In this document: positions 1,684-51,222 of the stretch, piece after piece
How the letters are laid out: every line of letters begins with the position of its first letter
Position numbering within the stretch: position 1 is the first letter of the stretch
From: Candidatus Eiseniibacteriota bacterium
Lineage (GTDB): Bacteria > Eisenbacteria > RBG-16-71-46 > SZUA-252
Direction: 5' to 3'
Assembly: GCA_043779525.1 (NCBI GenBank)
Contig: JAYWED010000018.1
Location: 20,867-84,866, forward strand
DNA: 64,000 bases
Position numbers and translations under genes: made by a program
The notes under the pieces: model-generated
Told to the model about the DNA's origin: nothing
Seen by the model: the letters and a program-made list of their open reading frames with translations, nothing else
Database searches by the model: none

Positions 1684-2811
1684 TTAGCGGGAAAGGAAAC
1701 TAGCCTTGGTTGCGAGGCTTACAAGCACCGTTCCGACCGCCTCGAGGCTCCGGGGGGAGCAGGTCGCGGGGGTATCGTGCGTCGTGTGCCACTCCGGAAA
1801 GCTGAAATCGATCAGGTCCACGGCCGGAATGGAGGCGTTCAGGAACGGAATATGGTCGTCGAACACCTGCGGACCCGGAACCGACCTGAAATTCCGGATT
1901 CCCAACTCATGGGCCTCCTGCCAAATCACGTCCACCACATTGGACGCCTGTTTCCGGGAATTGACCTCCCATTGCAGGGTCAGATCCGTCTTTCCGACCA
2001 TGTCGATGACGATCACGAACAGGGGGTGGTCCTCGCCGATCCGGCTCACATAGCGCATGGAGCCGCGGAAAAACCCGTTCGGATTCTCCTCCGTGCCCAG
2101 GTCCTCCCCGTCGAACAGGACGAGATCCACGCCGATCGGCGTCCCCGTCTTCTGGAGCACGCGCGCCATCTCGAGCAGCACCGCCACGCCGGAGGCGCCG
2201 TCGTTCGCGCCCAGGACCGCCCGGGTCCGGAGCGCGGGATTGGGATCCTTGTCGGCCCACGGGCGCGAGTCCCAGTGCGCTCCGATCAGGATCCGCTCCT
2301 TCGCGCGCGGCCGGAAGCGGGCCACGAGGTTCGTGAGTCGGACCTCCTTGCCCAGCTCGGGGGAATCGTACGTGAAGGAGTCCACCTGGACCTCGGGCGC
2401 CATCGCGCGGAATCGGGACGTGAGCCAGGAGAAGCAGGAGTCGTGCGCCGCGCTGCCCGGCACGCGCGGACCGAAGGCGCACTGGCGCTCGAGCATGGCG
2501 AACGCCGCCCTCCCGTCGAATACGGCCGCGGCGGCCTCATGGCGGCACGAAGGCAGAAGGAAGGCGAGCAGGAGTGCCGCGAACGCCCGCGCGAACGCCC
2601 GCGCGAACGCCCGGACGCTAGAAGCGGAACTGCCCGTTGACGGCGATCGTGATCCCGCGCTGCGTGAGGTTCTGCTTGTAGTCTTTCGTCTGGCGGAAGG
2701 CGAGGTCGAATCCCCCGGTGATCGATGGGGTGAAGTTGTAGGTGGTCCCGCTCCCCACGTTGAGCCGCTGGGTGTCGGTTTCGGACTGTGCCGGGAACCC
2801 AGGCGAGACAA
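1684..2811 (-). CDS. M28-family zinc peptidase (glutaminyl-cyclase/aminopeptidase-like), probably secreted lipoprotein; start ambiguous
   Basis: ORF has the M28-like core ...ILIGAHWDSRPWADKD...GANDGASGVAVLLEMARVL...FDGEDLG...DMVG...; signal/lipobox-like AALLLAFLLPSC precedes the core. The only in-frame ATGs are at 2811 (overlapping the giant upstream gene by about 190 nt, with a low-complexity S/T/R N-terminus) or about 2499 (which would remove the signal peptide). No GTG/TTG in between (checked codons). Confidence 0.6.
   Translation of the reverse strand: MSRLGSRHSPKPTPSGSTWGAGPPTTSPHRSPGDSTSPSARRKTTSRTSRSAGSRSPSTGSSASSVRAFARAFARAFAALLLAFLLPSCRHEAAAAVFDGRAAFAMLERQCAFGPRVPGSAAHDSCFSWLTSRFRAMAPEVQVDSFTYDSPELGKEVRLTNLVARFRPRAKERILIGAHWDSRPWADKDPNPALRTRAVLGANDGASGVAVLLEMARVLQKTGTPIGVDLVLFDGEDLGTEENPNGFFRGSMRYVSRIGEDHPLFVIVIDMVGKTDLTLQWEVNSRKQASNVVDVIWQEAHELGIRNFRSVPGPQVFDDHIPFLNASIPAVDLIDFSFPEWHTTHDTPATCSPRSLEAVGTVLVSLATKASFLSR
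2577..2612. repeat. Tandem 12-nt repeat (gcgcgaacgccc) x3 encoding (AFAR)x3 at the N-terminus of the M28 peptidase ORF, 5 nt downstream of the giant gene stop
   Basis: Direct reading: ccgcgaacgccc gcgcgaacgccc gcgcgaacgccc at 2577-2612. Confidence 0.8.
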
Positions 2812-5800: not shown

Positions 5801-8533
5801 GATCTCGATGAACCGGGTCCGCGAAAGGTCCTCGCCGGTCCTCGACATGGCCTGCGTGAGGCCGGTCCACGTTCTCGGCGTGAAGAAGGTGGCGGTGTCC
5901 CCCTGCGCAGGAATGTTCAGCTCGAGCACGGTGTGCTCGTTGTCCGAGCCCTCCGCTTTCGTGAGCACGGGCTTCAGGTCGCGCTCCTTGGCGCCTCCGT
6001 TTGCCGACGTGGGGTTGTACCACTCGACCCTCGCGTGCTCTCCGACCACCTGCGAGACGGGATTCTGAACGCTGTCGACCGGAATGCTGCTCCAGAACCA
6101 TCCGGTGCGCCCCATGGACAGCGTGTTCGATTCGCGGTTCCCCTCCATGTCGTCCACGTAGGCCTCCCCCTTGGTATTGGGGTTCGGCATGCTCACCGCC
6201 ACGTTGCCCTGGAGATTCATGCTGGAGGGAGCGGAAGTGTGGACACCGGGGATCAGATTGGCGAACTGGGTCATCCAGGATGGCCGGACCGTCACGACCG
6301 ACGCCAGGTCTCCCACCATGGAGCGGGCTGGCTCTTCCCCCAGCTTCGGGTTGACTTCCTGGGCGCCCCGGCTCTCGTAGAGCATGCTGGAGGACACGCT
6401 CAGGTCGGCGCTCGGACTGTACGACGTGGAGAATCCCATCAAGGTGCGCTGGACCTGGCTCACGCCGGGAGCGAAGGAGTAGTCCACCGAGATCACCGCG
6501 TCGGGGCCGGGTGGGCGGGTGAAGGTGATCTGCCCGGTCTCGTAGTCGATGTTGTAGTCGCTGACCTTCCTCTGGAGGACGTTGTCCACCTTCACCTGCT
6601 CGGAGTTTTCCAGGATATTGAACCGGCCGATGAAATACCCCTGCTGGCTGCTCTTGAACTGGGCGTCGATGTAGTAACGGGTCTGGCTCGGTGGATCGGG
6701 ATTCTTCGTGTAGTACACGTTCGGGTTCATCCGGGACGAATCCGCGGCCAGGATGTTCCGCACGGTGTCGTCCAGGCAGAGGAACCTGGGAAAGGGCCTG
6801 CACCCCGGAGAAAACGGGTGGAGGTCGGGGAAGAAGATGATCCCGCTCTCCACATCGAGGAAATGATCGTCCACCCGTCCATCCGGACCGGTTCCCGCCT
6901 GGGTGCCCTGCTGGTCCAGCCCCAGGGCCACGATCAGCGGGGTATCCCCGATCGCCTCCGGATCCACCGCCTGCCCGGCCTGGCGCTGCCGCACCTTGAG
7001 GATCAGGGTCGCGCGCGCGATGTTCCGGGCGGTGAGGTCGTAGAAGTTGCGCAGCTCGTAGGCCAGCGTGGGATACCAGGGATTCGCCGGATCGTAGGAC
7101 CCTCCCGGCAGGACCGTCACAAGTTCAGGACCCGGCTTGATCATCTGGAGGAGCACCGCGCCGACCGGCTTCTTCAGCGCGAGGTTCTCGCTGTTGCGAT
7201 CCGTATCCCCGATCTGAACCGAATCGGCTCCCGCCGAGGACTTTTCGACGTAGGAGACGCCGATGACATCGCTGGCAGTCAGGGGATACCGGAACTTGAT
7301 GACCGGAATCTCGGTCCCCGGCGGCACGCCGGGTGTCGTGACCACGTAGGGGAAGATGATGTCGTAGTCGACCCCCTGGGTCAGGATGTCGAAGGTTCCG
7401 CGGATCTGCGGATTCGTGTCGCTGCTGTCGCGGGTACCGTCCAGGCGGACGAGGCCGACCGGAAGTCCCGTATTATTGGAGCCGTTCCCGTCGTCCCGAT
7501 AGACCTTGAGGGACGCGCGATCCCAGACCATCTGGTGGTTACTGAAGAAGTAGTACTGCCGTTTGATGTAATCCATGTCGCTGATGAACGCCTGGCGCTT
7601 CTCGCCCGACGGGGTGAAGCGCGCGGTTTCGCTCTTCCCTTCCTGCTTGCTCACGATCGTGACCACGTCGACGTTCCCGAGCTTCGCCACGGTCTTGACG
7701 CCGAAGAGCCCCTCCTGCCGGATGGAAGCCCCCTGCAAGGAGAGGTTCGTGTTCCCGAGGTCGATCGACTTGATCATGTCGTCCTCGTCTCCCGCGTAGC
7801 GGAGCTTCACCTTGTTGTCGAGGGAGGTCTGGACGTTGCTCGACTGGTCCACGTCCACCTTGATCTTGTCGCCGATCGAGCCGGTGAGGTTTACTTGCAG
7901 GTCCTGCTTCATCTCCAGCGACGGGAAGGCGCTCGGTCGCTTGTGCTCCTGGTCCGGTATTCCGTTCTTCCGGACCGTCCAGTCGCTCACCCCGCTCAGC
8001 GTGATGGTCTCGCTGCCGGACACGTCGATGTTGGGCTGCGCGTCGCCGAGAATTCCGCGCGTGAACTTGGGGAGCTGGATGGGGATATCGACGTGGAAGA
8101 GACCCTGAGGCTTCTTCGCGATCCCGCGCGTCATCGAGCGGCTCTCGCGGGAGTCGTTGCGCCACAGCCTCCGAACCGTGCGGGTGGTAAGGAGCGTGGA
8201 GTACTGGTCGAGATCCGCGACCATCGGCGGACGCATCTCGACGCCGCCTTGGGTATAGCTCTCGCGGATCCGGCCGATGGTGGGATCGAAGGCGATGTCG
8301 GGGTCCCGCACCGCGGGCACCGTGGCTCCGGTCGGATCCGTGCGGCTCATGAGCCACCCCGGCGGCAGGTCGCTGTGGCTGCCGCCCGGGCTATCCCCGT
8401 AGAAAGAATCGGTCTGGGAGCGGTACCGCCAGTGCACTGCCGAGGCAGTCCCGGCGGCCGCGGTGGACGGCAGGGCGGCCGCTAAGCTGATGCAGAGACA
8501 GAGAATGATGCTCCGCTTGGGGTTTTGAATCAT
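2618..8533 (-). CDS. Giant (1971 aa) secreted outer-membrane beta-barrel-type protein; tentatively SprA/Sov-like (T9SS translocon family) - otherwise uncharacterized
   Basis: Uninterrupted 5.9-kb ORF. N-terminal signal peptide (MIQNPKRSIILCLCISLAAALPSTAAAGTASA). C-terminus ...IAVNGQFRF* ends in Phe with an alternating hydrophobic pattern typical of an OMP beta-signal. Rich in Gly/Asn/Thr/Ser/Tyr, beta-strand-like composition. Size and architecture resemble SprA-class giant barrels. No gld/por/spr partner genes in the window. Confidence 0.4.
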   Translation of the reverse strand: MIQNPKRSIILCLCISLAAALPSTAAAGTASAVHWRYRSQTDSFYGDSPGGSHSDLPPGWLMSRTDPTGATVPAVRDPDIAFDPTIGRIRESYTQGGVEMRPPMVADLDQYSTLLTTRTVRRLWRNDSRESRSMTRGIAKKPQGLFHVDIPIQLPKFTRGILGDAQPNIDVSGSETITLSGVSDWTVRKNGIPDQEHKRPSAFPSLEMKQDLQVNLTGSIGDKIKVDVDQSSNVQTSLDNKVKLRYAGDEDDMIKSIDLGNTNLSLQGASIRQEGLFGVKTVAKLGNVDVVTIVSKQEGKSETARFTPSGEKRQAFISDMDYIKRQYYFFSNHQMVWDRASLKVYRDDGNGSNNTGLPVGLVRLDGTRDSSDTNPQIRGTFDILTQGVDYDIIFPYVVTTPGVPPGTEIPVIKFRYPLTASDVIGVSYVEKSSAGADSVQIGDTDRNSENLALKKPVGAVLLQMIKPGPELVTVLPGGSYDPANPWYPTLAYELRNFYDLTARNIARATLILKVRQRQAGQAVDPEAIGDTPLIVALGLDQQGTQAGTGPDGRVDDHFLDVESGIIFFPDLHPFSPGCRPFPRFLCLDDTVRNILAADSSRMNPNVYYTKNPDPPSQTRYYIDAQFKSSQQGYFIGRFNILENSEQVKVDNVLQRKVSDYNIDYETGQITFTRPPGPDAVISVDYSFAPGVSQVQRTLMGFSTSYSPSADLSVSSSMLYESRGAQEVNPKLGEEPARSMVGDLASVVTVRPSWMTQFANLIPGVHTSAPSSMNLQGNVAVSMPNPNTKGEAYVDDMEGNRESNTLSMGRTGWFWSSIPVDSVQNPVSQVVGEHARVEWYNPTSANGGAKERDLKPVLTKAEGSDNEHTVLELNIPAQGDTATFFTPRTWTGLTQAMSRTGEDLSRTRFIEIWVNDRTPFHDQTHGNLHIDFGRVSEDAFWQADSLPNGRFDSEDRNCDTKLDDGEDTGLDGVLDPDEAGYTGSGSDPHGDDFAYSNDPDKAKDYSKINGTERNARIDTEDLDLNCNLDKVNSYFEATVDLSKMAYVAVDVPRDYPGIVSERNGWRLFRIPLSSPAFVSVGGPSWDDIKHSRIWLDGLTGPTNIQIGGIELVGSRWLARPISGAMKKRGVVFDVKVRNNKDDAATYKAPFDVPNAVGESATRREQSLALAYDRLQGGDSVFAFKTFSDNGSGIGYTQYRDIRFYVHGDPGVETQKIRVLARFGADTVNYYEYSLPVRTGWQDVRIPLEVLSRLKESNDALSVKIDSLTSADIGARYTVVGRPSFTRVNRISFGVTALDSASGTPGEVWIDELRLDGVRKDVGKTGNFAVQANFADVLALNASFAKQDQDFFRVGSGVNQGTGLNHTAMGFSSTLQLDKMLPLSGLQLPVRVTVAHSTDVPKYRTGSDVVLDQGRSDVETRRADRQSVDFRYSRTGPRKGLTRWTIDAINGSMAYSRAANVEPQSRDSSWAFAATGNYDLPIGGGKGIPLSRGLKFKYLPDIVSFGVDWNATRSTSYSRFIQGQQDSAAIRSNVLNRLLSLRTNASYLPINGVTTHYSLTSQRDMLQRQPGFTGSNVGTEVAHNQSMELNWTPRRVLFLNPNVALTGSYREDGNAGVRLNANDPLGLKNISNRGSARATTAIPLSRLAQRFRGSGSPRDSGGGSPLLVPLRLLFGRLQDIQTSFSFERSASATRVVGKPGFAYIAGFTQKLDPSLYRAPSSNLVQNRQYISTASTTIQPLTHLSVDVRADHRIAFSDASLGARRIYTLSWPDLNGRWLQLQQDLGLGDMLSSLVLSSHYSLKTEDQGPAGKALETHVTTTNWLPLLRWEASFRNGIRAEVNTAFSKSEALDERIGGVVRTHTTKNHDVRLTKTYPASKGIRFPWSKRRVKLPNDVNLNLTMGIARDKQYFVSPGFPAQSETDTQRLNVGSGTTYNFTPSITGGFDLAFRQTKDYKQNLTQRGITIAVNGQFRF

Positions 8534-11161: not shown

Positions 11162-11920
11162 TCAACCCGCTTTCTTCGCCGCCACCGGGGCCGTGCCCGC
11201 GGGCGCCATGATGCGCCCCTCCTTCAGGAACGGAACCAAGGGCGCCGAATCCACCGCGGCGCAAACGGGGAGGTCCTCCTCGAAGCCCAGCCCTTCCAGA
11301 TAGCGGCCGTGCTCGCTCCGCCGGAGGATGGCCTCGGGCGACATCCCGTGTGCGATGTCGAAGTCGCGCGCGTAGGCCGCCGCGTCGTTCAGCTCCAGAT
11401 CGGGCGACGCGTCGGCGAGCCTCCGGATCAAAGCGCCCGCGCAGGCTGTGTCCTCGAGCGAGAAGCGTCCGCTCCGTCCCGCGCACACGATCGTCAGATC
11501 CGACTGGGCGGCCGTGACCGCCTTCTGTACGGCGCTCAGGTTCACGTACCCGAGGAGGATCTGGTCGCGTCCGGCCAGCGGGCCCGCCATGAGCGGACTC
11601 AGATTCGTGGAAGCGAAGATCAGCGTGGCGCCGTTCACCTTCTTGCGCGTGTATTCACGTGGCGAATTCCCCAGGGCGAAGCCGCTCACCTTCCGCCCTT
11701 CGCGCTCCCCGCACAGGAGGCTCGTCTTGGGATCCAGCGTCTCGTGGAGGCGCGTCGCCTCCTCGACCGTCTTCACCGGGATGATCTTCACCGCTCCGTT
11801 CAGGAGCGCTGTCGCGATGCTGGTGGAGGAGCGAAGCACGTCCACGACCGCGATTTGCCTCGAGTCGGGCGAGGCGCGCTCCAGCTCGGACGGAATGACG
11901 TAGAGATCGATTCGTTTCAT
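11162..11920 (-). CDS. 2-phosphosulfolactate phosphatase (ComB) family protein
   Basis: The last 252 aa of the 610-aa composite ORF ([16 protein letters not shown]...[12 protein letters not shown]...) read as the ComB family. ATG at 11918-11920 overlaps the accC stop (ATGA). The upstream part of the 610-aa ORF is out-of-frame read-through of accC. Confidence 0.6.
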
Positions 11921-13275
11921 TGGGCCGCCGGCCCCGCCGACAGGAATTCGTCGAGGAACCCGGTGTGGATATCGCCGCGGAGGAACGCGGGATCCTTGAG
12001 GATGCGCAGGTGGAGCGGAATCGTGGTGTCGATGCCCTCGACCACCGTCTCCTCGAGAGCCCGCCGCATCCGCACGACCGATTCCATGCGGTCCCGGCCC
12101 CACGTGATGATCTTGGCCACCATGGAATCGTAGTGCGGCGGCACCGTGTATCCCGAATAGAGATGGCTGTCCACGCGGACGCCGGGACCACCGGGACCGT
12201 GGAAATAGGTCACCTTCCCCGGCGACGGCTGGAAGTTGTGGTCCGGCTTCTCCGCGTTCACGCGGCACTCGATCGCGTGTCCGCGCAGGCGCACCTCGTC
12301 CTGTTTCCAGGGCAGCGCTTCTCCGGCGGCCACCGCGATCTGAGCCTTGATCAGATCGTAGCCGGTCACCTCTTCGGTCACGGGGTGTTCCACCTGGATG
12401 CGCGTGTTCATCTCCATGAAGTAGAAGCTGCGATCCTGACCCAGCAGAAATTCGATCGTCCCGCAGCTCTCGTATCCGATCGATCGGGCCCCGGCCACCG
12501 CGGCCGAGCCCATCTTCGTGCGCAGCTCGTCGTCGAGCGCGACGCTCGGCGATTCCTCGATCAGCTTTTGATGCCGGCGCTGGATGGAGCACTCGCGCTC
12601 CCCCAGATGAATCAGGTTGCCGTGCTTGTCGCCGATGATCTGGAACTCGATGTGCCGCGGCTTCTCGACGTACCGCTCGAGGTAGACCGCCCCGTTCCCG
12701 AAGTTGGCCTCCGCCTCCGCCTGGGCGGTGCGGATCCCGTTCCGGAGGGAGGACTCGTCGGTGGCGACGCGCATTCCCTTGCCGCCGCCGCCGGCCGCGG
12801 CCTTGATGATCACCGGATAGCCCAGCTCGCGAGCCACGGCGGCCGCGTCGTCGGAGGACTCGAGGGTGCCCTCGCTTCCGGGCGTCACCGGCACGCCCGC
12901 CTTCACCATCGTCTTCCGCGCGACCGCCTTGTCCCCCATGAGCCGGATCATCTCCGAGGTCGGCCCGATGAAGCGGATGTTGCACGACTCGCACACTTCC
13001 GCGAAGTGCGCGTTCTCGGAGAGGAATCCGTAGCCGGGATGGATCGCGTCGGCGGCCGTGATCTCGGCGGCGCTGATGATACGCGCCATGTGGAGATAGC
13101 TGACCGCGGAGGGCGGCGGCCCGATGCAGACCGCCTCGTCCGCGAGGCGCACATGCAGCGAGTCCCGGTCCGCCTCGGAGTAGACGGCCACCGTCTCGAT
13201 TCCGAGCTCCCGCGCCGCGCGAATGATGCGCAACGCGATTTCACCTCGGTTGGCGATCAGGATCTTCTTGAACAT
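11917..13275 (-). CDS. accC: Acetyl-CoA carboxylase biotin carboxylase subunit
   Basis: 452 aa, [36 protein letters not shown]... classic AccC ATP-grasp sequence. Confidence 0.9.
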
Positions 13276-13279
13276 CCGG

Positions 13280-14404
13280 CTAGACGGGGCTCTCTTTGTG
13301 CTCGAACGGCTTCCACGACTCGTCCGACGTGGCGTGAATGCCCTTCACGCGGAGCTCGAATTCGGTCGGATTGGAGCAGTAACGGAGCGCCGTCTCGAGG
13401 CTGATCTTCCCCTCCGTGTGTTGCTTCATGATCGCCTGGTCGAAGGTCTGCATGCCGTACTGGGAAACGCCCTCCTGGATCGCGCCCTTGATCAGCGAGG
13501 TCTTCGCCGGATCCAGCAGGTACTCGCGGATCGTGGCGGTCGCGATCATGACCTCGGCCGCGGGAATCCGGCCCGCCTGGTCCGAGCGGGGCATGAGCCG
13601 GAGCGCGATCACCGCCTGGAGCGTCGAGGAGAGCATGTACCGCGTCTCCTCGTGCTGGTGCGGCGGGAAGAAGGAAAGGATCCGGTTGATCGTCTGCGGA
13701 GCGTCGGTCGTGTGGAGTGTGGAGAGCACTAGGTGTCCGGTGTCGGCCGCCATGAGGGCGGTCTGCATCGTTTCGGCGTCACGGATCTCACCGATCAGGA
13801 TCACGTCGGGATCCTGACGAAGGATGTGCTTCAAGCCCTCGGCGAAGGAGGCCGTGTCCAGGCCGACCTCGCGCTGGGAGATGGTGCTTTTCTTGTCCCG
13901 ATAGAGAAACTCGACCGGGTCCTCGATCGTGATGACGTTCTTGGCGACGGTCCGATTCACCGAATCGATCATGGCCGCGAGCGTGGTGGACTTGCCGCTT
14001 CCCACGGTGCCGCAGACGAGAACGAGTCCGCGAGGGCGACTCGCGATCTCCTCGATGGTCCCGGGGAGGTTCAGCTCCTCGAAAGACGGAATCGTCGCCG
14101 GCACCTGCCGGAAGACCATCGCGATGGTTCCGCGCTGCTGGTAGAAGTTGGTCCGGAAGCGCGAAAGACCGGTCACGCCGAATGCGAAGTCCACCTCCCG
14201 CGTGTCCTCGAAGGTTTTCTTCTGCTTGGGCGTCAGGATCTGATCGACGATCGCCTCCAGATCCGCCTGGCTCGGCGCCGGCTCGTCCAGCGTGACCAGG
14301 GCTCCGTTCTGGCGCGCGGTGGGCTTGGTGCCCACCTTGACGTGAAGGTCGGAAGCTTTGAGCTCCACCATTTTTTGCAGCACTCGCTTGATGTTCATCC
14401 CCAC
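13280..14404 (-). CDS. pilT: Type IV pilus retraction ATPase PilT (twitching motility protein)
   Basis: 374 aa; Walker [11 protein letters not shown], Asp box, ...[29 protein letters not shown]..., and C-terminal AIREG-like motif; length and motifs match PilT/PilU rather than PilB. Confidence 0.85.
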
Positions 14405-14418
14405 TCCCCTCGCACGGA

Positions 14419-14874
14419 CTACGCGGCGGTGTCTGATTCCACCAGGAACAGTGTCTGCCCGTACTCCACGGGCTGAGCGTTCTCCACGAGAATCCGGGTG
14501 ATCCTGCCCTCCACCTCGGACTCGATCTCGTTCATCAGCTTCATCGCCTCCACGATGCAGACGGTCTGGCCCACCGTGACCGAGCTCAACTCCTCGACAT
14601 AGTTATCGGCATCCGGCGCGGGAGCGCGATAGAACGTGCCCACCATCGGCGATTTGATCGGAATCAGGTTCTTCGGGGGCTTCGCCTCGATCTCGGGCCG
14701 CTCGCTGGGGGCCGCAACCTCCGCGGGGCGGGGCGCCTGCGCCATGGGCGCCAAGGCGTCCGGGCCGGCGCGCCTTGCGCGTATGGTGGTGAACCACCGG
14801 CGGACCTCGATCTCGGCCAGCTCTTCGTCGCGCATGATCGCGACCATCTCCCGGATTTTCTTGCGCAGGTTCAT
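14419..14874 (-). CDS. accB: Acetyl-CoA carboxylase biotin carboxyl carrier protein
   Basis: 151 aa from ATG 14872-14874 (ATGA overlap with aroQ stop): MNLRKKIREM...; biotinylation motif CIVEAMKLMNEIE. The longer 234-aa ORF is an out-of-frame N-terminal extension. Confidence 0.85.
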   Translation of the reverse strand: MNLRKKIREMVAIMRDEELAEIEVRRWFTTIRARRAGPDALAPMAQAPRPAEVAAPSERPEIEAKPPKNLIPIKSPMVGTFYRAPAPDADNYVEELSSVTVGQTVCIVEAMKLMNEIESEVEGRITRILVENAQPVEYGQTLFLVESDTAA

Positions 14875-15335
14875 CGGTTTCTCCGCGGCGTCCCGGCTCG
14901 ATTCAGCCTGGACGCCAGCTCGTGCAGGCCCAGCTCGTAGCTCCGGGCGCCGAATCCCATGATCACGCCGGAGGCGGCCGCGCCCGTCAGGCTCGCCGCG
15001 CGGGATCCTCCCCGGGCGTACAGGTTCGTGAGATGGACCTCGACGACCGGAATCGTCATGGCCCGCATCGTGTCGGCGAGGGCGACGCTCGTGTGCGAAT
15101 AGCCGCCCGGGTTGATCAGACAACCGTGCGCCGCGCTCATGGCAACGATGAGGCGGTCGATGAGAGCGCCCTCATGGTTCGTCTGGAAGCACTCCACCGT
15201 AAGTCCCAGGCTCTCGCCGAGCGTTCCGAGCCTGCGATCGATCGCGTCGAGGGTTTCCCGCCCGTAGAGATCGGGCTCGCGTTTCCCCAGAAGATCCATG
15301 TTCGGTCCGTGCAAGACCCATACGGTCTTCGACAT
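14871..15335 (-). CDS. aroQ: 3-dehydroquinate dehydratase, type II
   Basis: MSKTVWVLHGPNMDLLGKREPDLYG...LINPGGYSHTSVAL... canonical AroQ; start at ATG 15333-15335 overlapping the upstream stop. Confidence 0.8.
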   Translation of the reverse strand: MSKTVWVLHGPNMDLLGKREPDLYGRETLDAIDRRLGTLGESLGLTVECFQTNHEGALIDRLIVAMSAAHGCLINPGGYSHTSVALADTMRAMTIPVVEVHLTNLYARGGSRAASLTGAAASGVIMGFGARSYELGLHELASRLNRAGTPRRNR

Positions 15336-31542: not shown

Positions 31543-32679
31543 GCCGCCTCCGCGGCGCGCGCGATCACCGAGCGGACCGCTTCGTCCATGTCGCTCAGCG
31601 CCATGAGTCCGCGCTGACCCAGGAGCGCCCGCGCTTCCGTCTCGTTCGTCCCGGTGAGACGGATCACGATCGGGATCCGGACGTTCAGGCGGTCAAGCGC
31701 GGTCAGGAGCCCGCGCGCCACATCGTCGCAGCGCGTGATTCCGCCGAAAATGTTGAAGAGCACGGCCTTGACGCGCGCGTCCCGGGTCAGGATGCTCATC
31801 GCCGACTCCACCTTCTCCGGATTGGACGAGCCCCCGATGTCGAGGAAGTTGGCCGGCTTGCCGCCGTGATACTGGATCAGGTCCATGGTGGCCATGGCCA
31901 GGCCCGCCCCGTTCACCACGCAGCCGATCGTGCCGTCCAGCTTCACGTAGGAGAGCGAGCGATCGCGCGCCTCCACCTCGTCCTTGTCCTCGGCCGAGAG
32001 ATCGCGCCACGAGGCCAGATCGGGGTGGCGGTCGAGCGCCGAGTCATCCAGGACGATCTTCGCGTCGAGTGCTTGAACCTCGCCCTTCTTCGTGACGGCG
32101 AGCGGATTGATCTCGGCGAGCGATGCGTCGTGCTCCCGGTACACGCGCGCGAGTTGACGCAGGATCGGCGCGATCTGTTTCTGGATCGCGGGGCTCTTGT
32201 CGAGGAAACGCGCGGCCTCGCGCGCCCGGTACGCCGGAAGCCCTCGCAGGTCCACCGGAACTCTCAGAATTCGATCCGGAGCCGTTCGCGCGACCTCCTC
32301 GATGTCGATCCCGCCCGCGGGGCTCACCATGAGAAGCGGCGTCTCGTTCCTGCGATCCAGCACCATGCCCGCGTAGTACTCGCGGTCGATGTCGGCCGAG
32401 GGGGTGATCAGCACCCGGCTCACCCTAAGGCCGCGGATGTCCATCCCGAGGATGCGCCCGGCCTCGCGCTTCAGTTCTTCGGCGGCGCGCACCACCTTGA
32501 CGCCCCCTGCCTTGCCGCGGCCGCCGATCAGCACCTGAGCCTTCACCACCACGGGGTATCCGAAGCGCTCCGCGGCGGCCACCGCCTCCTCCACGCTCGC
32601 GGCAACGTCGCCCGGGGGCACGGGAATCCCCGCCGCGCGGAAGAGGTCCTTGGATTGGTATTCGTGGAGATTCAATGCT
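31539..32679 (-). CDS. sucC: Succinyl-CoA synthetase beta subunit
   Basis: TTG start (…GAGAGGGAAGCA TTG AAT CTC CAC GAA TAC CAA = [10 protein letters not shown], classic SucC N-terminus) with RBS GAGAGGGAAG. ATP-grasp and ligase-CoA domains follow. Upstream part of the 546-aa ORF is out-of-frame. Confidence 0.85.
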
Positions 32680-34117
32680 TCCCTCTCATGACCCGCGCCG
32701 CTTTTCTCGCCGCCTTCTTCATGCCGCCCGTGGCGGGCGAGGCCGCGTCCCGCCGCGCGCGTTTCTTCGCGCCCGAAGCTTCGAGCAGTCCGAGGCAGTC
32801 CTTGATCAGATCCTCGAGCTTCGGCCGGCCGATCTCTTCCAGCTCGTAGCCGACGCGGACGGCCGGGCGCTTCATGTTCACGAGCTTCCGGAGATCGATG
32901 GGCGTGGCGACCACGATCACGTCGCAAACGCACGCGTTGATGGTCTTCTCCATGTCCCGGATCTGGTCCTTGGAATAGCCCATTGCCGGGAGGAGCGCTC
33001 CGATGGCGGGATACTGCTTGAACGTATCCTTCATTCCGCCCACCAGCCACGGCCTTGGATCCACGATCTCGCTCGCGCCGTGCCGGCGCGCGGCGATGAC
33101 GCCCGCGCCGTACTTCATCTCGCCGTGCGTGAGCGTGGGGCCGTCCTCGATCACGAGCGCCCGCTTGCCCCGGATCCATTCGGGCCGGTCCACCGTGATC
33201 GGCGAGGCGGCGTCCACGATGATCGCGCGGGGATTGAGCTCTTCGATGGAGTGGCGGACCGCCTCGACGTTCTCGTAGTCGGTGGTCGTCTCCTTGTTGA
33301 TCACCACCACGTCCGCGAGCCTCACGTTGGTCTCGCCGGGATGGTACGTGCGCTCGTGGCCCGGACGGTGCGGATCGGCCACGACGATCTGGAGGTCGGG
33401 TTTGAAGAAGGAGAGGTCGTTGTTCCCGCCGTCCCAGACGATGACGTCCGCTTCACCCTCGGCCTTGCTCAGGATCTCGGCGTAATCGACCCCGGCGTAG
33501 ACGATGGTGCCGCGATCCAGGTGCGGCTCGTATTCCTCGCGCTCCTCGATCGTGCACTTGTGGCGGTCCAGGTCGGCGTAGGTCTCGAAGCGCTGCACGC
33601 CCTGCCGGGAGAGCTCCCCGTACGGCATGGGGTGACGGACCGCGACGACGCGCTTGCCCATCGCCTTCAGCACCTCGCACACCTTGCGGGTGGTCTGGCT
33701 CTTGCCCGCGCCGGTGCGCACGGCGTTCACGGCGATGACCGGAGTGCGGCTCCTGAGCTGGGTCGTCTTCGGACCCATGATCGTAAAATCGCATCCGAGG
33801 CTCGCGATCCAGGAAGCCTTGTGCATCACGTACTCGTGGGACACGTCGCTGTACGCGAAGACCACCTCGTCCACCTCGTGCTCCCGGATCAGCTCGGGAA
33901 GCTCCAGCTCGGAGTAGATCGGGATGCCCTTGGGATAGCGCGCGCCGGCCAGAGAGGGCGGATAGCGCCGGTCGTCGATTCCGGGAATCTGCGCCGATGC
34001 CGTGAATGCCACCACCTGGTACTCGCTGCGACGCTTGAAGAACATGTTGAAGTTGTGAAAATCGCGCCCGCCGGCGCCCATGATGACTACTCGTCTCGGC
34101 TTACTCACTCGAGGCAC
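32672..34117 (-). CDS. Two-domain P-loop protein (Rossmann-like N-domain + Walker-A NTPase domain), resembles cyclic 2,3-diphosphoglycerate synthetase-family proteins; basic C-terminal tail
   Basis: 481 aa; N-terminal VVIMGAGGRDFHNFN; internal Walker A AVNAVRTGAGKSQTT; ...VIVWDGGNND...; tail [35 protein letters not shown]. Family assignment is from memory of the domain order, not a search. Confidence 0.4.
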   Translation of the reverse strand: MPRVSKPRRVVIMGAGGRDFHNFNMFFKRRSEYQVVAFTASAQIPGIDDRRYPPSLAGARYPKGIPIYSELELPELIREHEVDEVVFAYSDVSHEYVMHKASWIASLGCDFTIMGPKTTQLRSRTPVIAVNAVRTGAGKSQTTRKVCEVLKAMGKRVVAVRHPMPYGELSRQGVQRFETYADLDRHKCTIEEREEYEPHLDRGTIVYAGVDYAEILSKAEGEADVIVWDGGNNDLSFFKPDLQIVVADPHRPGHERTYHPGETNVRLADVVVINKETTTDYENVEAVRHSIEELNPRAIIVDAASPITVDRPEWIRGKRALVIEDGPTLTHGEMKYGAGVIAARRHGASEIVDPRPWLVGGMKDTFKQYPAIGALLPAMGYSKDQIRDMEKTINACVCDVIVVATPIDLRKLVNMKRPAVRVGYELEEIGRPKLEDLIKDCLGLLEASGAKKRARRDAASPATGGMKKAARKAARVMRGKH

Positions 34118-46210: not shown

Positions 46211-46546
46211 TCAATTGAGGTTAGCGGCACGGCTGCGGTCCCTCCGGATCGATGCGATTGCTTCGGTCCAGCTCTCTTTCAGATCGACGAGCGCTTCGGC
46301 CGCTTCGTCGAAGCGGCCCTCCGCCGATTCCGCCATGCAGAAGTCGATGATCCCGAGCACCCGCCCCGCCACGTCCTCGCTCGCGAGCTCCAGGCACTGC
46401 ATGGATTCGAGCAGCGCCTCCTCGACCACCGGCCGGCTTCCGTTCCGGCATCCCCGGAGCGCGCAGTCCAGCAAAGCAAGGACCTCGTCGCAGCGGCGGA
46501 GCCAGCGGTCCAGCTCCGCCGGACCCTGCTCGTAGAGTTGACTCAC
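46211..46546 (-). CDS. fliS: Flagellar export chaperone FliS-like protein
   Basis: 111 aa; by-eye alignment to Bacillus FliS: AELDRWLRRCDEVLALLDCAL ~ PGELTLMLYNGCLKFIRLAAQAI; VLGIIDFCMAESAEGRFDEAAEALVDLKESWTEAI ~ AMYDYMYRRLVQANIKNDTGMLAEVEGYVTEFRDAWKQAI. GTG start overlapping csrA stop (TAGTG). Confidence 0.55.
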   Translation of the reverse strand: MSQLYEQGPAELDRWLRRCDEVLALLDCALRGCRNGSRPVVEEALLESMQCLELASEDVAGRVLGIIDFCMAESAEGRFDEAAEALVDLKESWTEAIASIRRDRSRAANLN

Positions 46547-47377: not shown

Positions 47378-48193
47378 TCAGACGAAGCCCAGACCGGGCA
47401 GCTTCTTTCGGAACGCGCGCGCGAATTGCCGCGCGGCCTCCTCGCGCGCGTCGGCGGTCCGGGCGTCGAGAATCGCCTCGAGGAGCGCGCTCCCGACGAT
47501 CACGCCTTCCGCCTTCCCCCGGTAGCGCTCGATCGGCGTCTTCAGACCGATGCCGAACCCGAGGCAGCGCGGCGCCGGGGAAAGCTCGCGGCAGCGCGCG
47601 AGGAGCGAGTCGACCGCGGCGTCCTCCCCGCCCTTCCCGGTGACGCCGAGCCGCGCCACGACATAGATGTACCCGCGTGCCCCCTCGAGCAGCCTGGGCA
47701 GCCGTTCCGGATCGGTGGTCGGCGCCACGAGCGGGATTGTGTCGATCCCGCTCCCGCGCAGATCCTTCCAGAGCCCCGGCTCTTCCTCCGGCGGCAGGTC
47801 CACGAGCACGAGGCCGTCCACGCCGGCATCCGCGGCGTCGGCGGCGAATCGCGCCGCCCCGTAGCTCAGGATCGGGTTCAGGTAGGTCATGAGCACGAGC
47901 GGCGTCTCGTGGCGCGCCCGGAGCCTCATCGCCTGCCCCAGCACGTGCGCGAGGGTGGTGCCCGCTCGAAGGGCGGTCTCCGTCGTGCGCTGGATCACCG
48001 GCCCGTCGGCGACCGGGTCGGAGAAAGGCACGCCGAGCTCGAGCAGGTCCGCGCCCTCCTCGCAGATGGACGAGGCAAGCCGGTCGGATTCGACGAGATC
48101 GGGAAATCCGGAGGTGAGAAACGGGACGAACGCTCCGCGGCGTTCCCTGCGGGCGGTCTCGAACGCACGGCCGAGCCGGCCGGCCGTGCTCAA
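47378..48193 (-). CDS. trpA: Tryptophan synthase alpha chain (no adjacent trpB)
   Basis: 271 aa; ...GADLLELGVPFSDPVADGPVIQ... and ...GFGIGLKTPIE... TrpA motifs. Confidence 0.85.
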   Translation of the reverse strand: MSTAGRLGRAFETARRERRGAFVPFLTSGFPDLVESDRLASSICEEGADLLELGVPFSDPVADGPVIQRTTETALRAGTTLAHVLGQAMRLRARHETPLVLMTYLNPILSYGAARFAADAADAGVDGLVLVDLPPEEEPGLWKDLRGSGIDTIPLVAPTTDPERLPRLLEGARGYIYVVARLGVTGKGGEDAAVDSLLARCRELSPAPRCLGFGIGLKTPIERYRGKAEGVIVGSALLEAILDARTADAREEAARQFARAFRKKLPGLGFV

Positions 48194-49215
48194 CCGATCA
48201 GGGCCGCGGCCCGCCGATAGGCTTCGCGGGCACGGGACGGCAGCTCCTTCTTGTCGAAGGCAACGCCCAGGAGGCGATGGATGCGGGGATCGTCGGGGTT
48301 CAAGCGCGCCGCGGTCTCGAGCGCGAGGATGGCCTGGTCCACGGCCTCCTGGCTGTTGTAGGCGACGCCCAGATAAAAATGGAGGCGCGCTTCGTCGGGC
48401 CGCCTCTCGATCGCCTGCTTCAGCTCCGCGACCGCGCTGGCATAGGCCCCGGTCCGCTGATGCAGGAGCGCCAGAGCGTAGAGCCCCTCCACGTTCCCCG
48501 GGTCCAGCCGCACCGACTCGTGCAAGGTCGTCTCCGCCTGAGCCAGCTCGTCCTCGGCGAGGAGCGCCCAGCCGAGATTGAAATGCGATTCCGAGGATTC
48601 CGGATCCAGGTCCACGGCGCGCCGGAATTCCGCCAGCGCCTCCTCGCGGAGCCCTTCCTCGGCGTAGAGCGCGCCCAGGTTCGAGTGCGCCTCGGCGCAG
48701 CCGGGGTCCGCCGAGATGGCGCGCTTGAGCGCGCTCACGGCGCCGACCCGGTCGCCTCCGTCGGCGCGCGCGAGCCCGAGGTTCACCCAGGCCTTCACGT
48801 GATCGGGCTTGAGCCGCACGGCTTCCTCGTAGGACGCCACGGCTTCGGCGGTCCGTCCCTGGCGCCCCTTGTGGAGCCCGCGGAGGTACCAGACGTCCTC
48901 GGCCTCCGCGCTGGCCTCGAGCGCTTTCTGGAAGTAGAGATCCGCCTCCTCGAAGGTCCCGGAGCGCGAGAGAAGGTCCGCGAGCGAGACCAGGAGGCCG
49001 GCGTGACGGGAGTGCGTGAGGATTCCCTGGCGGAGGACGTCGATCGCTCGGTCGCGGCGGCCCTCGAGCGCGAAGATGCGCGCGGCCTCACGGATTTGCT
49101 CGGGCTCGGAAGAGCCGCGCGCGAGATTTTCGGCGAGGGCGAGGCTCTCTTCGCTCCCTGCCTGCGACGCTCCCAGCGGAGCGTCCGACATCGTCATCGG
49201 CATGGCACGATCCAC
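48190..49215 (-). CDS. TPR-repeat protein
   Basis: 341 aa with about 8 TPR-like repeats (…AWVNLGLARADGGDRVGAVSALKRAISADPG…AHSNLGALYAEEG…). Confidence 0.6.
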   Translation of the reverse strand: MDRAMPMTMSDAPLGASQAGSEESLALAENLARGSSEPEQIREAARIFALEGRRDRAIDVLRQGILTHSRHAGLLVSLADLLSRSGTFEEADLYFQKALEASAEAEDVWYLRGLHKGRQGRTAEAVASYEEAVRLKPDHVKAWVNLGLARADGGDRVGAVSALKRAISADPGCAEAHSNLGALYAEEGLREEALAEFRRAVDLDPESSESHFNLGWALLAEDELAQAETTLHESVRLDPGNVEGLYALALLHQRTGAYASAVAELKQAIERRPDEARLHFYLGVAYNSQEAVDQAILALETAARLNPDDPRIHRLLGVAFDKKELPSRAREAYRRAAALIG

Positions 49216-49261: not shown

Positions 49262-50563
49262 CTACGGAATGGGTTCCAGGTCTCGCGTGAAGGACTCGTC
49301 GAAGCCATCGGTTTTCTTCCGGCTCCCGGATTTCCTGGCGGGAGCGTCGTCCGAATGGACCTGGATCGAGACTTCCACGGTGAGCGTGATGCGCCCGGAG
49401 CCCGGAAGGGCGCCCAGGTCGATCGGAATCGAGATCCGCCGCGAGTCCCCCGTCCCTGTGCCTTCAGCGCTGCGATGGGTCGAAGCGCTCGAGGAGGGAA
49501 CGCCCGGGTCGCGCTCGAAATCGCCGATCGATTCCTCGTCGGCCACGCTGGGCGCGGCGGCGGAAGCGCGAATCGGCTCCGGCCGGGCCGGAGCGCCGAG
49601 GGGCGGGTGCGGGATCATGTCTTCCTCGGTCAGCACCAGTTCCTCTTCGGCGTTCAGCTTCTGAGGGATCTCCGTCAGGGGCGTGTCGTCGATCAGGGCG
49701 TCATCGCTCAGAAGGGGCGTGGGCTCGAACGCCGCGGCCTGGGCGGCGCCTCGAGATTGCGGATCCGCGGGGGCCCCGGGGGCCTCGGCCCCCATGGCGT
49801 CGGATTCGGCCGGCTCGTTCTGCTCCCCCTTGCCGCGCTTCAGGTATTTCAGCAGCTTTCCGCCCGTGTGCGCGCCACGCTCCGCTTCCTTCCTGGATGC
49901 GGCGTTTGCGGCCTCGGCCCTCGCGGCCTTGTCCTTCGCGCGCGCGAGACCCTGCACGGCGCCCTTGTCCTTCTCGAGCACGTCCTTCGTGATCTTCGCG
50001 AGCAAGAGCTTCGAGACCCCACGCAGCGTCTCGAACACGCCTGTGCCGTTGGCCGCCTGAGCCTCGAAGTACGGGACGTTCAGACGGTTCAGCTCCTTGT
50101 TCAAATCCGCGATCGAGACGGCGCTCGGGAGATCGCGCTTGTTGTATTGAAGCACCAGGGGGATCGTCTTGATGTCGATCCCGTACGCCTTGAGGTTCAA
50201 CTCGAGGTTGGCGAAGCTCTCGCGGTTTTCCGCCATCTTGTCCACCGCGGAATCCGCGACGAAGACGACGGCGTCGACGCCCTTCAGCACGAGCTTTCGC
50301 GTCGCGTTGTAATACACCTGTCCCGGCACGGTGTAGAGCAGGAGCCGGGTTTTCATGCCCTGGAGGTCGCCCAGGTCGAGCGGAAGCAGATCGAAGAAGA
50401 GCGTACGGTCGGTCTGTGTCTTCATCGAGACCATGCGTCCCCGGTTCGTCTCGGGAACACTGTCGTAGATCTTCTCCAGATTGGTCGTCTTGCCGCTCAG
50501 ACCGGGCCCGTAGTACACGATCTTCGCGTTGATCTCGCGCCCCGAATAACTCACCACCACCAT
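49262..50563 (-). CDS. mglA: MglA-family small Ras-like GTPase with about 235-aa low-complexity/acidic C-terminal extension
   Basis: N-terminal 195 aa align residue-by-residue with Myxococcus MglA as recalled from memory: MVVVSYSGREINAKIVYYGPGLSGKTTNLEKIY...RTLFFDLLPL...LYTVPGQVYYNATRKLVLKGVDAVVFVADS...IPLVLQYNKRDLP... including the MglA-specific TVPGQ G3 motif. ORF then continues in-frame for 235 aa (KDKAARAEAANAASRKEAER...LTEEDMIPHPPLGAPARPEP...) to stop at 49262. RBS GAGGAG 7 nt upstream. Confidence 0.75.
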   Translation of the reverse strand: MVVVSYSGREINAKIVYYGPGLSGKTTNLEKIYDSVPETNRGRMVSMKTQTDRTLFFDLLPLDLGDLQGMKTRLLLYTVPGQVYYNATRKLVLKGVDAVVFVADSAVDKMAENRESFANLELNLKAYGIDIKTIPLVLQYNKRDLPSAVSIADLNKELNRLNVPYFEAQAANGTGVFETLRGVSKLLLAKITKDVLEKDKGAVQGLARAKDKAARAEAANAASRKEAERGAHTGGKLLKYLKRGKGEQNEPAESDAMGAEAPGAPADPQSRGAAQAAAFEPTPLLSDDALIDDTPLTEIPQKLNAEEELVLTEEDMIPHPPLGAPARPEPIRASAAAPSVADEESIGDFERDPGVPSSSASTHRSAEGTGTGDSRRISIPIDLGALPGSGRITLTVEVSIQVHSDDAPARKSGSRKKTDGFDESFTRDLEPIP

Positions 50564-50808: not shown

Positions 50809-51222
50809 TCAGGCGCGCGGGTCCCGCCGGATCCAGATCCCCTGGCGCTCCTTGATCTGGAGGCCTGGACCGCCGGGGTCGTTCACGCCCTCGTAATGGC
50901 GGAGCAGGAGCTCCTTGAGCGCGGGGTACTCGATGGTGGGAAAGTAGCGGCTCACCCGGCTGAACATGCCGTCGCGATCCGAATAGCGCAAGAGCTCCAC
51001 TTCGGTGACTCGCTCGTACTGGTTCTCGCCGTACGCCACCTCGGGCGTCTCATCCACGTCGATCCAGAGCGACGCCACGCTCTGTAGCACGTCGAACCGG
51101 TGCTTGGATCGCATGAGGAACTCCCAGAGGCCGAAGATCTCGAGCGGCACGTAGCGCACCGTGGCGTCACTCTCGGAATCCGGCCTTCGAATCTCGCAGC
51201 GCACCAGCTTCTGACTCGCCAT
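50809..51222 (-). CDS. Hypothetical 137-aa protein upstream of and co-oriented with mglA
   Basis: ATG 51220-51222 preceded by GGAGGTG RBS: MASQKLVRCEIRRPDSESDATVRYVPLEIFGLWEFLMRSKHRFDVLQSVASLWIDVDETPEVAYGENQYERVTEVELLRYSDRDGMFSRVSRYFPTIEYPALKELLLRHYEGVNDPGGPGLQIKERQGIWIRRDPRA; no recognizable family (not Roadblock/LC7-like by composition). The 279-aa ORF's first 142 codons have implausible Arg/Pro-rich composition. Confidence 0.45.
   Translation of the reverse strand: MASQKLVRCEIRRPDSESDATVRYVPLEIFGLWEFLMRSKHRFDVLQSVASLWIDVDETPEVAYGENQYERVTEVELLRYSDRDGMFSRVSRYFPTIEYPALKELLLRHYEGVNDPGGPGLQIKERQGIWIRRDPRA

Follow-up and report, generated by a model that had tools for sequence, protein, structure and literature searches.

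In a window of 64,000 nucleotides from a Candidatus Eiseniibacteriota (Eisenbacteria) genome, the window being the whole 64-kb stretch of DNA that was analysed (GC content 67%), one open reading frame (ORF) encodes a GTPase of the MglA family with a new architecture. A complete MglA G domain is followed, in the same frame, by a tail of 238 residues that is kept throughout the Eisenbacteria lineage, appears to be unique to it and bears the marks of a translated sequence under purifying selection. Across the lineage, the constant parts are the G domain, a long acidic or proline-rich linker and, near the C-terminus, an element whose pattern resembles a beta-hairpin. In the following, the evidence for this architecture is presented, and possible functions of the tail are discussed in the light of its relatives and its gene neighbourhood.

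The ORF of 433 amino acids (aa) corresponds exactly to positions 49262-50563 on the minus strand, which an earlier note on this DNA had left unstated. It starts with an ATG, the earliest start codon available behind an in-frame stop, and a GAGGAG Shine-Dalgarno sequence lies 7 nucleotides (nt) upstream. The first part of the protein is the following domain:

49979-50563, minus strand: MglA G domain, residues 1-195, with GPGLSGKT, R53, TVPGQ and NKRD, and the pocket residues L64, L67, R181 and K185

In a phmmer search of the PDB, residues 3-193 align without a gap to the MglA of Myxococcus xanthus (MxMglA; 6h17, 6hjh and 5ymx) with an E-value of about 2e-72 and an identity of 57% (109/191), and to the MglA of Thermus thermophilus (3t12) with an E-value of 3e-65. 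The best solved proteins after MglA are Sec4, Arl and Sar1, each with E > 1e-4. This alignment bears out the MglA match that the earlier note had described for residues 1-195, with its GPGLSGKTT and TVPGQ motifs. The P-loop GPGLSGKT (residues 19-26) and NKRD (N141-D144) are in the register of MxMglA, and the intrinsic Arg finger R53, which adjoins the G2 threonine T54, has the same position as in MxMglA and is invariant in 110 homologues. The G3 motif T78-V-P-G-Q82, which replaces DxxGQ, is likewise invariant in these 110 homologues. The MglA proteins of M. xanthus and T. thermophilus share all of these features, namely the P-loop, Arg53, TVPGQ with the catalytic Gln82, NKRD and the pocket residues. 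In addition, the equivalents of the allosteric pocket (R181, K185, L64 and L67) are invariant in alignments of 21 and 110 members of the long-tailed family, and the whole G domain is almost invariant among the 110 members, with ratios of nonsynonymous to synonymous substitution (dN/dS) of 0.02-0.09. A Pfam Arf match (1.7e-5) exceeds the family cut-off. Judged from its sequence, the G domain keeps all residues needed for MglA-type GTP binding and hydrolysis.

Group 1 MglA proteins have been defined by the P-loop, the intrinsic Arg finger, TVPGQ and NKxD (Wuichet & Sogaard-Andersen 2014, PMC4316618), and the G domain has every one of these sequence features. Two further Group 1 characteristics are not shared, namely the operational length of at most 240 aa (here 433 aa) and an mglB gene within four genes, which is typical but not universal. 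Because only an operational length and a non-universal coupling to mglB differ, the protein is a member of the MglA family with a new architecture and not the founder of a new family. Known MglA proteins are single-domain proteins of 195-203 aa with mglB adjacent, whereas here a tail of 238 aa is present, mglB is absent from the window and other conserved genes take the neighbouring positions.

An AlphaFold2 (AF2) model of the full-length protein has a predicted local distance difference test score (pLDDT) below 50 over the N-terminal 100 residues of the G domain, despite the 57% identity to solved MglA. This is likely because the underlying multiple alignment of 110 sequences is nearly invariant there, the two beta2 registers of MglA being an alternative cause. 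Whatever the cause, the low score of the G domain means that the full-length model is not to be used.

The 238 in-frame residues after residue 195 (235 in the earlier note) are found far beyond this one contig. Among 5.8 billion protein clusters, more than 100 clusters of 393-455 aa match with 100% coverage of the query and an overall identity down to about 53%, and in a collection with one genome per GTDB species the full-length gene is present in about 32 species, nearly all of them labelled Candidatus Eisenbacteria. The deeper relatives L034 and L035 are long too, and the architecture is shared by about 34 genome loci. The genome search was performed with the subfamily-specific peptide patterns GKTTNLEK and NRGRMVSM and recovered one copy per genome, in a search whose patterns a canonical MglA would escape. 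The tail was not found as a separate gene at any of the Eisenbacteria or out-group loci examined. The GC content at third codon positions (GC3) is 0.83 in the tail and 0.87 in the G domain, and second codon positions are much poorer in GC, a profile expected of translated sequence in this genome. In pairwise comparisons with ten orthologues, the whole tail has dN/dS values of 0.19-0.43, its conserved islands 0.11-0.35 and the linkers between them 0.29-0.52, the islands being lower in every pair. These values indicate that the tail is translated and under purifying selection. A sequencing or assembly frameshift that joined two genes, or a neutrally drifting read-through tail, might be suspected from the low-complexity, A/E/P/G/S/D-rich composition and from the long spurious ORFs that arise in high-GC genomes, but it is ruled out for practical purposes by an identical single-ORF architecture in more than 100 clusters from independent assemblies, by the in-frame GC3 and the dN/dS values (down to 0.11 in the motifs), and by a tail that is never its own gene and carries invariant residues scattered along its length. 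The fusion that the earlier note had wanted to see confirmed is therefore genuine, being a single ORF in all orthologues with coding-like GC3 and dN/dS below 1, and its tail is both conserved in relatives and specific to the lineage.

At several loci, the NCBI label (Binatia, Dormiibacterota, Omnitrophota, Hyphomicrobiales or Bacteroidota) conflicts with an assignment to Eisenbacteria that is uniform in all other respects. Two contigs of one metagenome-assembled genome (DASQAV01, labelled Dormiibacterota; loci L011 and L019) both carry a long-tailed mglA, whose products match the window protein with identities of 68% and 91%, respectively. Horizontal transfer is a less likely cause of such discordance than mixed bins or wrong labels.

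Alignments of 21 and of 110 family members show that the tail is made of conserved islands between variable, indel-rich linkers. The six residues A, E, P, G, S and D together account for 60% of it, and its net charge is -13. The following parts can be distinguished from the G domain onwards:

49886-49978, minus strand: K/A-rich continuation of helix alpha5, residues 196-226, from AF2 and conservation
49826-49864, minus strand: basic amphipathic island GGKLLKYLKRGKG, residues 234-246, from conservation and hydrophobic moment
49685-49729, minus strand: acidic-hydrophobic island FEPTPLLSDDALIDD, residues 279-293, from conservation
49613-49654, minus strand: acidic amphipathic island NAEEELVLTEEDMI, residues 304-317, from conservation and local pLDDT
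49505-49528, minus strand: island IGDFERDP, residues 346-353, conserved as GDFERE/GEIERE in the family
49358-49444, minus strand: C-terminal beta-hairpin-like motif SRRISIPIDLGALPGSGRITLTVEVSIQV, residues 374-402, from conservation, beta moment and pLDDT
49265-49303, minus strand: terminal motif FDESFTRDLEPIP-COOH, residues 421-433, followed by the stop codon at 49262-49264

In the AF2 model, a single helix spans residues 174-226 (pLDDT about 60-76), and D199 and G201 in the alpha5 continuation are near-invariant. In the basic island, G235, K236 and K242 are invariant, and conservation of at least 90% is seen at L237, L241, R243, G244 and K245; with a net charge of +4, it has the highest helical hydrophobic moment of the tail (0.73) and is a candidate membrane- or partner-binding helix. 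Like the targeting helices of the MinD/FtsA type, it is short, basic and has a hydrophobic face, and its internal position (234-246 of 433) is atypical of them. In the acidic-hydrophobic island (PLLSDDALIDD), both alignments give a conservation of at least 90% for P283, and the alignment of 21 sequences does so for L285. In the acidic amphipathic island, L311 and D315 are invariant in 21 sequences and at least 90% conserved across 110, as is E308 (at least 90%), and the local pLDDT rises to 67 with a short AF2 helix within 311-320 (313-315). A counterpart of the IGDFERDP island, GDFEPSP, is present in the deep-branching locus L034. The hairpin-like motif, with the family consensus RRISIPIDLGALPxSGRITLTVEV, has invariant P380, L383, L386, P387 and G390, a strictly alternating pattern, the highest beta hydrophobic moment of the tail and an AF2 pLDDT peak of 74-78. 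The protein ends with SFTRDLEPIP, of which R427, D428 and E430 are at least 90% conserved. The largest 19-residue Kyte-Doolittle average in the tail is 0.83, so the tail has no hydrophobic segment.

The K/A-rich, acidic (LTEEDMIPHPP) and S/G-rich segments listed in the earlier note are all present, and the recurrence of the full-length architecture in more than 100 clusters is far beyond chance. Its description of the tail as disordered and acidic/Pro-rich holds for the linkers, where pLDDT is below 50 for most of residues 230-375 and the charge-hydropathy relation falls on the disordered side, but it does not hold for the conserved islands and the terminal hairpin-like element.

Which parts of the tail are shared by the whole lineage can be seen from its deepest branches, namely L034 (392 aa), L035 (398 aa) and L082 (468 aa), whose tails have 197-273 residues; L082 belongs to the marine "Latescibacteria DG_63" lineage and has an extremely Glu-rich linker. 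Their tails can be aligned to the window tail solely at the hairpin element. A regular expression for the hairpin (hydrophobic-x-hydrophobic-P-hydrophobic-x-hydrophobic, a turn of 5-14 residues, then four alternating hydrophobic positions) matches 33/36 proteins of the Eisenbacteria lineage and 0/46 out-group MglA proteins. Two of the proteins missed are cut by contig ends, and the third, L035 (RVVVPLAIDASQLVNGQTVEIVLQV), has a looser version. Because the deepest tails align only at the hairpin, what is constant in the lineage is the G domain together with a long linker, acidic or rich in proline, and the terminal hairpin. The terminal FDESFTRDLEPIP motif is kept in the shallower clades and is not found in L034, L035 or L082; it is in the shallower clades that its RDLE peptide, like the basic island and the acidic ones, was gained or became fixed.

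No Pfam domain is detected in the tail, even at E <= 10. A tail-only profile was built from 19 diverse sequences and searched with HMMER against 1.84 billion representative proteins, which gave 19 matches, 17 of them members of the long-tailed family or fragments thereof. The other two are giant repeat proteins of the DUF11/CARDB type (E-values of 1.7e-4 and 5.8e-4), whose repeats end with "…VDLGTLPxxxxATITFxVTV", the terminal hairpin of an Ig-like sandwich. The hairpin motif was rejected as a DUF11/CARDB Ig-like repeat, since only about 20-35 residues match, and these weakly, compared with a domain of about 100 residues, and AF2 shows no domain. The resemblance supports a strand-turn-strand conformation of the motif and not homology. 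A lone hairpin is unable to fold alone; this one probably pairs with the edge of a beta-sheet, which we infer could belong to a partner, to its own G domain or to another copy of the protein. By these profile searches, the tail appears unique to the Eisenbacteria lineage. In the literature searched, nothing relevant was found on extended or disordered MglA tails, on the cell biology of Eisenbacteria or on planctomycete MglA, and the tail, the hairpin motif and the family and gene module described below appear to be undescribed.

Tails of other kinds are present in other phyla. Seven MglA proteins of Planctomycetota (L036, L037, L038, L041, L043, L044 and L054) have 320-397 aa, with a Pro/Ala-rich linker and a C-terminal segment of transmembrane (TM) grade whose 19-residue Kyte-Doolittle averages are 1.95-3.48, and these proteins look tail-anchored. 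The mglA gene of L036 (6001-7074) has Roadblock-type genes on both sides (5584-5952 and about 7105-7621). About 19 MglA proteins from Thermoanaerobaculia and other Acidobacteriota have 299-389 aa, with a linker that is acidic and rich in DPFG and, at the C-terminus, an amphipathic or coiled-coil-like helix (…AERAELQSLLASASAVVQALEAAL…); the helix-tailed loci include L057 (6001-7035), L055, L059, L060, L064-L066, L068, L069, L071-L073, L075, L076, L078, L080 and L081. Tails of the Thermoanaerobaculia type carry a conserved 'PDMSAKSGV…SAGTPKLSMK' segment, and no Roadblock gene was detected within 6 kb of the long mglA genes of Thermoanaerobaculia/Acidobacteriota. The relatives from Terriglobia and Verrucomicrobiota have 189-205 aa. 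The long out-group proteins resemble those of Eisenbacteria in that the G domain is followed by a low-complexity linker of 110-200 aa and a short terminal element, but their terminal elements, a TM-like helix or an amphipathic/coiled-coil-like helix, differ from the Eisenbacteria hairpin, which is absent in 46/46 out-groups. From these comparisons, long tails have been added to MglA repeatedly, in a lineage-specific manner. The statement in the earlier note that canonical MglA proteins end at about 195-200 aa agrees with the solved structures (195-203 aa) and does not extend to Planctomycetota and Thermoanaerobaculia, which are also long-tailed. The 2014 survey of MglA left out sequences of more than 240 aa (PMC4316618), and because of this the canonical MglA seems uniformly short and long tails have been overlooked.

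The order of the genes around mglA is conserved as well. On the minus strand, the order is orf137, a gap of 245 nt, mglA, a gap of 46 nt, a gene for a tetratricopeptide repeat (TPR) protein and then trpA, and genes for an LpxL-like acyltransferase and a GT4 glycosyltransferase lie upstream in the divergent orientation:

50809-51222, minus strand: orf137, 137 aa, no known family, 245 nt upstream of mglA
48190-49215, minus strand: TPR protein, 341 aa, cytoplasmic, 46 nt downstream of mglA; candidate effector or adaptor
47378-48193, minus strand: trpA (Pfam Trp_syntA 2.8e-75), with a 4-nt overlap with the stop of the TPR gene (48190-48193)

The order orf137-mglA-TPR is found in every Eisenbacteria locus with the relevant sequence, including L035, with one inserted gene in L082. 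The TPR gene is downstream at all loci with sequence there (in L082, behind the inserted gene), and its product shares 60-94% identity among members of the main clade and 35% in the case of L035. The TPR protein has Pfam TPR matches down to 1e-40, to generic models alone; as MamA, PilW, GltE, Tgl and others, it was rejected with scores far below the NCBIfam equivalog cut-offs. The trpA gene is found 3' of the TPR gene throughout the phylum, no trpB adjoins it in the window, and it is apparently co-transcribed with the mglA-TPR pair. Although syntenic with mglA, trpA is probably functionally unrelated to it.

The position of orf137 is that of mglB in the mglBA operon of Myxococcus. The protein is 70-92% identical across the main clade and has about 400 homologues, all annotated as hypothetical, with no Pfam match at E <= 10, no NCBIfam match and no PDB sequence match with the family profile. 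As a Roadblock/MglB protein, orf137 was rejected with an hhalign probability of 0.06% against 45 out-group Roadblock ORFs, and its fold does not conform to the Roadblock alpha-beta-alpha sandwich. By the tests applied, orf137 is a new fold and not MglB. Searches for mglB itself were performed by jackhmmer, seeded with three Roadblock/MglB genes that flank out-group mglA, and by a Robl_LC7 scan of neighbouring genes; they detected no Roadblock/MglB gene in the whole 64-kb window, nor at distances of up to 6 kb at 35 Eisenbacteria loci. Identical jackhmmer seeds recovered Roadblock genes in 19 loci of Planctomycetota and Verrucomicrobiota.

Several known systems suggest what such a tail could do. 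In M. xanthus, MglA-GTP acts via the TPR protein SgmX, which activates type IV pili (PMC7519303, PMC7668184). The D/E-rich helices of MglB (D150, D151, D152, D154 and F157) and of RomR bind a pocket of MglA formed by K181 and K185 of alpha5 and by L64 and I67 of the beta2-beta3 loop, and a helix bound in this pocket favours the flipped beta2 state and nucleotide exchange (PMC6785124). Like the Eisenbacteria tail, MglB and RomR carry their D/E-rich amphipathic segments on a flexible extension, and the pocket residues that they contact are conserved here (PMC6785124); their helix is supplied in trans by a regulator, whereas the candidate segments here are within the GTPase itself and their docking is putative. 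The NAEEELVLTEEDMI island is a candidate in-cis analogue of these helices. With regard to effectors, the functional coupling of a TPR protein to MglA-GTP in the SgmX-MglA system (PMC7519303, PMC7668184) has a possible parallel in the TPR gene that lies 46 nt downstream of mglA across the phylum.

The TPR protein of Eisenbacteria, which matches only generic TPR models, is much smaller (341 aa) than SgmX, which has about 1,060 aa and whose gene is not next to mglA. Another example of a pair of MglA and a TPR effector involves Bd2492 of Bdellovibrio. The general design, in which a folded NTPase is followed by a disordered linker and short targeting motifs, is also known from the hypervariable region of Ras/Rho and from the C-terminal linker and peptide of FtsZ, and targeting helices are known from MinD/FtsA. 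Compared with these systems, a basic amphipathic island is shared, but there is no homology and no lipidation signal, and the helix is internal.

By analogy with these systems, the reading that we favour slightly is that the tail would be a tether and a docking arm, perhaps with an additional auto-regulatory role. The GGKLLKYLKRGKG basic island would keep the switch at the membrane or at an acidic surface, while the terminal hairpin and the C-terminal peptide would dock on a partner, most obviously orf137 or the TPR protein. As for the acidic amphipathic islands, they would bind the TPR protein or fold onto the basic allosteric pocket of their own G domain. As a result, the TPR effector would be recruited, depending on the nucleotide, to a defined site in the cell, with type IV pili as a plausible target. 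The TM-grade ends of the seven planctomycete MglA proteins offer a precedent for localisation of MglA by its tail, and a PilT-family ATPase encoded in the window also speaks for this reading. The suggestion in the earlier note that the extension could tether the GTPase to a scaffold or regulate access of a GTPase-activating protein (GAP) or guanine nucleotide exchange factor (GEF) is compatible with the linear motifs, with TPR and orf137 as neighbours, with the lack of a nearby mglB and with the conserved pocket.

A number of observations weigh against the tail as tether and docking arm. In L034, L035 and L082, the basic island and several of the acidic ones are lacking or no longer recognisable. 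The genes for TrpA, the acyltransferase and the glycosyltransferase are equally syntenic, and the synteny of orf137 and the TPR gene may stem from a region that rearranges slowly and has kept its gene order frozen. Furthermore, MglB, RomR/RomX or a second, short MglA may be encoded elsewhere in these genomes, and the AF2 model of the full-length protein is of poor quality (mean pLDDT 58).

Among the alternatives, auto-regulation in cis could be the main function of the tail. An acidic island, of which NAEEELVLTEEDMI is the best candidate, would dock in the alpha5/beta2-beta3 pocket of its own G domain and replace the helix that MglB or RomR provides in trans; this would set nucleotide exchange or the beta2 'screw' state, and binding of a partner to the tail would release it. 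The invariance of R181, K185, L64 and L67 in the family agrees with such a role, as do the failure of probes that work in out-groups to find a Roadblock gene in the window or nearby at the 35 loci, the out-group MglB C-termini (…DD[LV]F), which are similar in character to the tail island (…EED[MLF][IV]), and the rise in local pLDDT with a short helix at 311-320. However, the pocket residues are also present in tail-less relatives (for example, Terriglobia with ...TLKEISRLVL...), and because these short relatives keep them, the conservation of the pocket is not specific to the family. The acidic islands cannot be recognised in L034 and L035, several of them could serve as the docking helix with none singled out, and an mglB gene could be present elsewhere. 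We regard cis docking as the main function as unlikely.

Another explanation is that the long-tailed protein is a specialised paralogue like SofG, with a different job, such as the positioning of one machine via its TPR neighbour, and that a canonical short MglA-MglB pair is encoded elsewhere in the genome. A second MglA homologue of this sort is known from M. xanthus: SofG is not stimulated by MglB and is dedicated to positioning the type IV pilus ATPases, and both SofG and the long-tailed MglA are longer than the canonical protein (PMC4316618). The patterns GKTTNLEK and NRGRMVSM would also have passed over a canonical MglA. This explanation is nevertheless an improbable one, as the G domain, with 57% identity to MxMglA, no indels and extreme constraint, is unlike that of a diverged paralogue, and as the genomes yielded one copy each, in housekeeping surroundings that do not vary. 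Bulyha and co-workers are said to have described, in 2013, that the extra sequence of SofG is chiefly N-terminal; if so, the two proteins differ further, as there is no N-terminal extension here and the tail has no similarity outside its lineage.

The tail could also be a membrane anchor comparable to the hypervariable region of Ras/Rho, with the basic helix on anionic lipids, a spacer, and the hairpin in or on the membrane. The GGKLLKYLKRGKG island is the most amphipathic and most basic segment of the tail and is among the most conserved, and the TM-grade ends of planctomycete MglA proteins show that membrane attachment evolved elsewhere. On the other hand, the helix has only about 8-9 residues between Gly caps and is located in the middle of the tail and not at its end, the island is absent from L034, L035 and L082 whereas the hairpin persists, and the Kyte-Doolittle maximum of 0.83 leaves no segment that is hydrophobic. 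As this explanation also leaves the conserved acidic islands and the terminal peptide unaccounted for, we regard it as rather doubtful.

A bolder extension of the tether and docking arm would be a switch that is independent of MglB, in which an acidic helix occupies the pocket in cis, the basic helix and the hairpin target the protein to the membrane or a scaffold, orf137 represents a novel type of MglA regulator (GAP or GEF) and the TPR protein is the effector. We consider it rather unlikely that all of these parts hold together. If true, it would mean, taken with the TM-anchored MglA proteins of Planctomycetota and the helix-tailed ones of Thermoanaerobaculia, that bacterial Ras-like GTPases have repeatedly evolved targeting tails like the hypervariable region, in parallel to eukaryotic Ras/Rho/Rab.

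Other genes of the window bear on the machines that the organism may possess. A type IVa pilus ATPase of the PilT/PilU family is encoded at 13280-14404 on the minus strand (TIGR01420, 444 bits versus a cut-off of 319), between accC (11917-13275) and the gene for the biotin carboxyl carrier protein (14419-15123), which is an unusual place for a pilus motor. At 2618-8533 on the minus strand, a Sov/SprA outer-membrane translocon of the type IX secretion system (T9SS) with 1,971 aa is encoded (TIGR04189, 498 bits versus 200; Pfam SprA_N). Because a PilT-family ATPase and SprA are encoded in the window, the organism plausibly has type IV pili and a T9SS machinery like that of Bacteroidota. The title of master regulator of gliding and type IV pilus polarity, which the earlier note had given to this GTPase, carries Myxococcus biology over to an uncultured phylum, and a link of mglA to either gene would be speculative. 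Two further genes have coding-like GC3 and no Pfam/NCBIfam match: one for a protein of 111 aa (46211-46546, minus strand), which is found downstream of trpA in most Eisenbacteria loci with 43-98% identity, and one for a protein of 481 aa (32672-34117, minus strand). No tRNA and no Rfam family at the gathering threshold was found in the window (positions 1-64000), and no intrinsic-terminator-like site was found between 47 and 52 kb, whereas shuffled sequence gave more such sites; terminators of this type seem to be rare here.

MglA is the best-understood Ras-like switch of bacteria, and it is at present modelled as nothing more than a G domain, with its location and activity left entirely to the separate proteins MglB, RomR/RomX and MglC. 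A phylum in which MglA has a constrained tail, no adjacent MglB and two fixed gene neighbours is a natural experiment in targeting or regulation in cis, and orf137 is a candidate for a new family of regulators. As the motifs of the tail are short and defined, ideas about its regulation in cis are testable although the organisms are uncultured. The tails in other phyla suggest that localisation by a tail is common among prokaryotic small GTPases.

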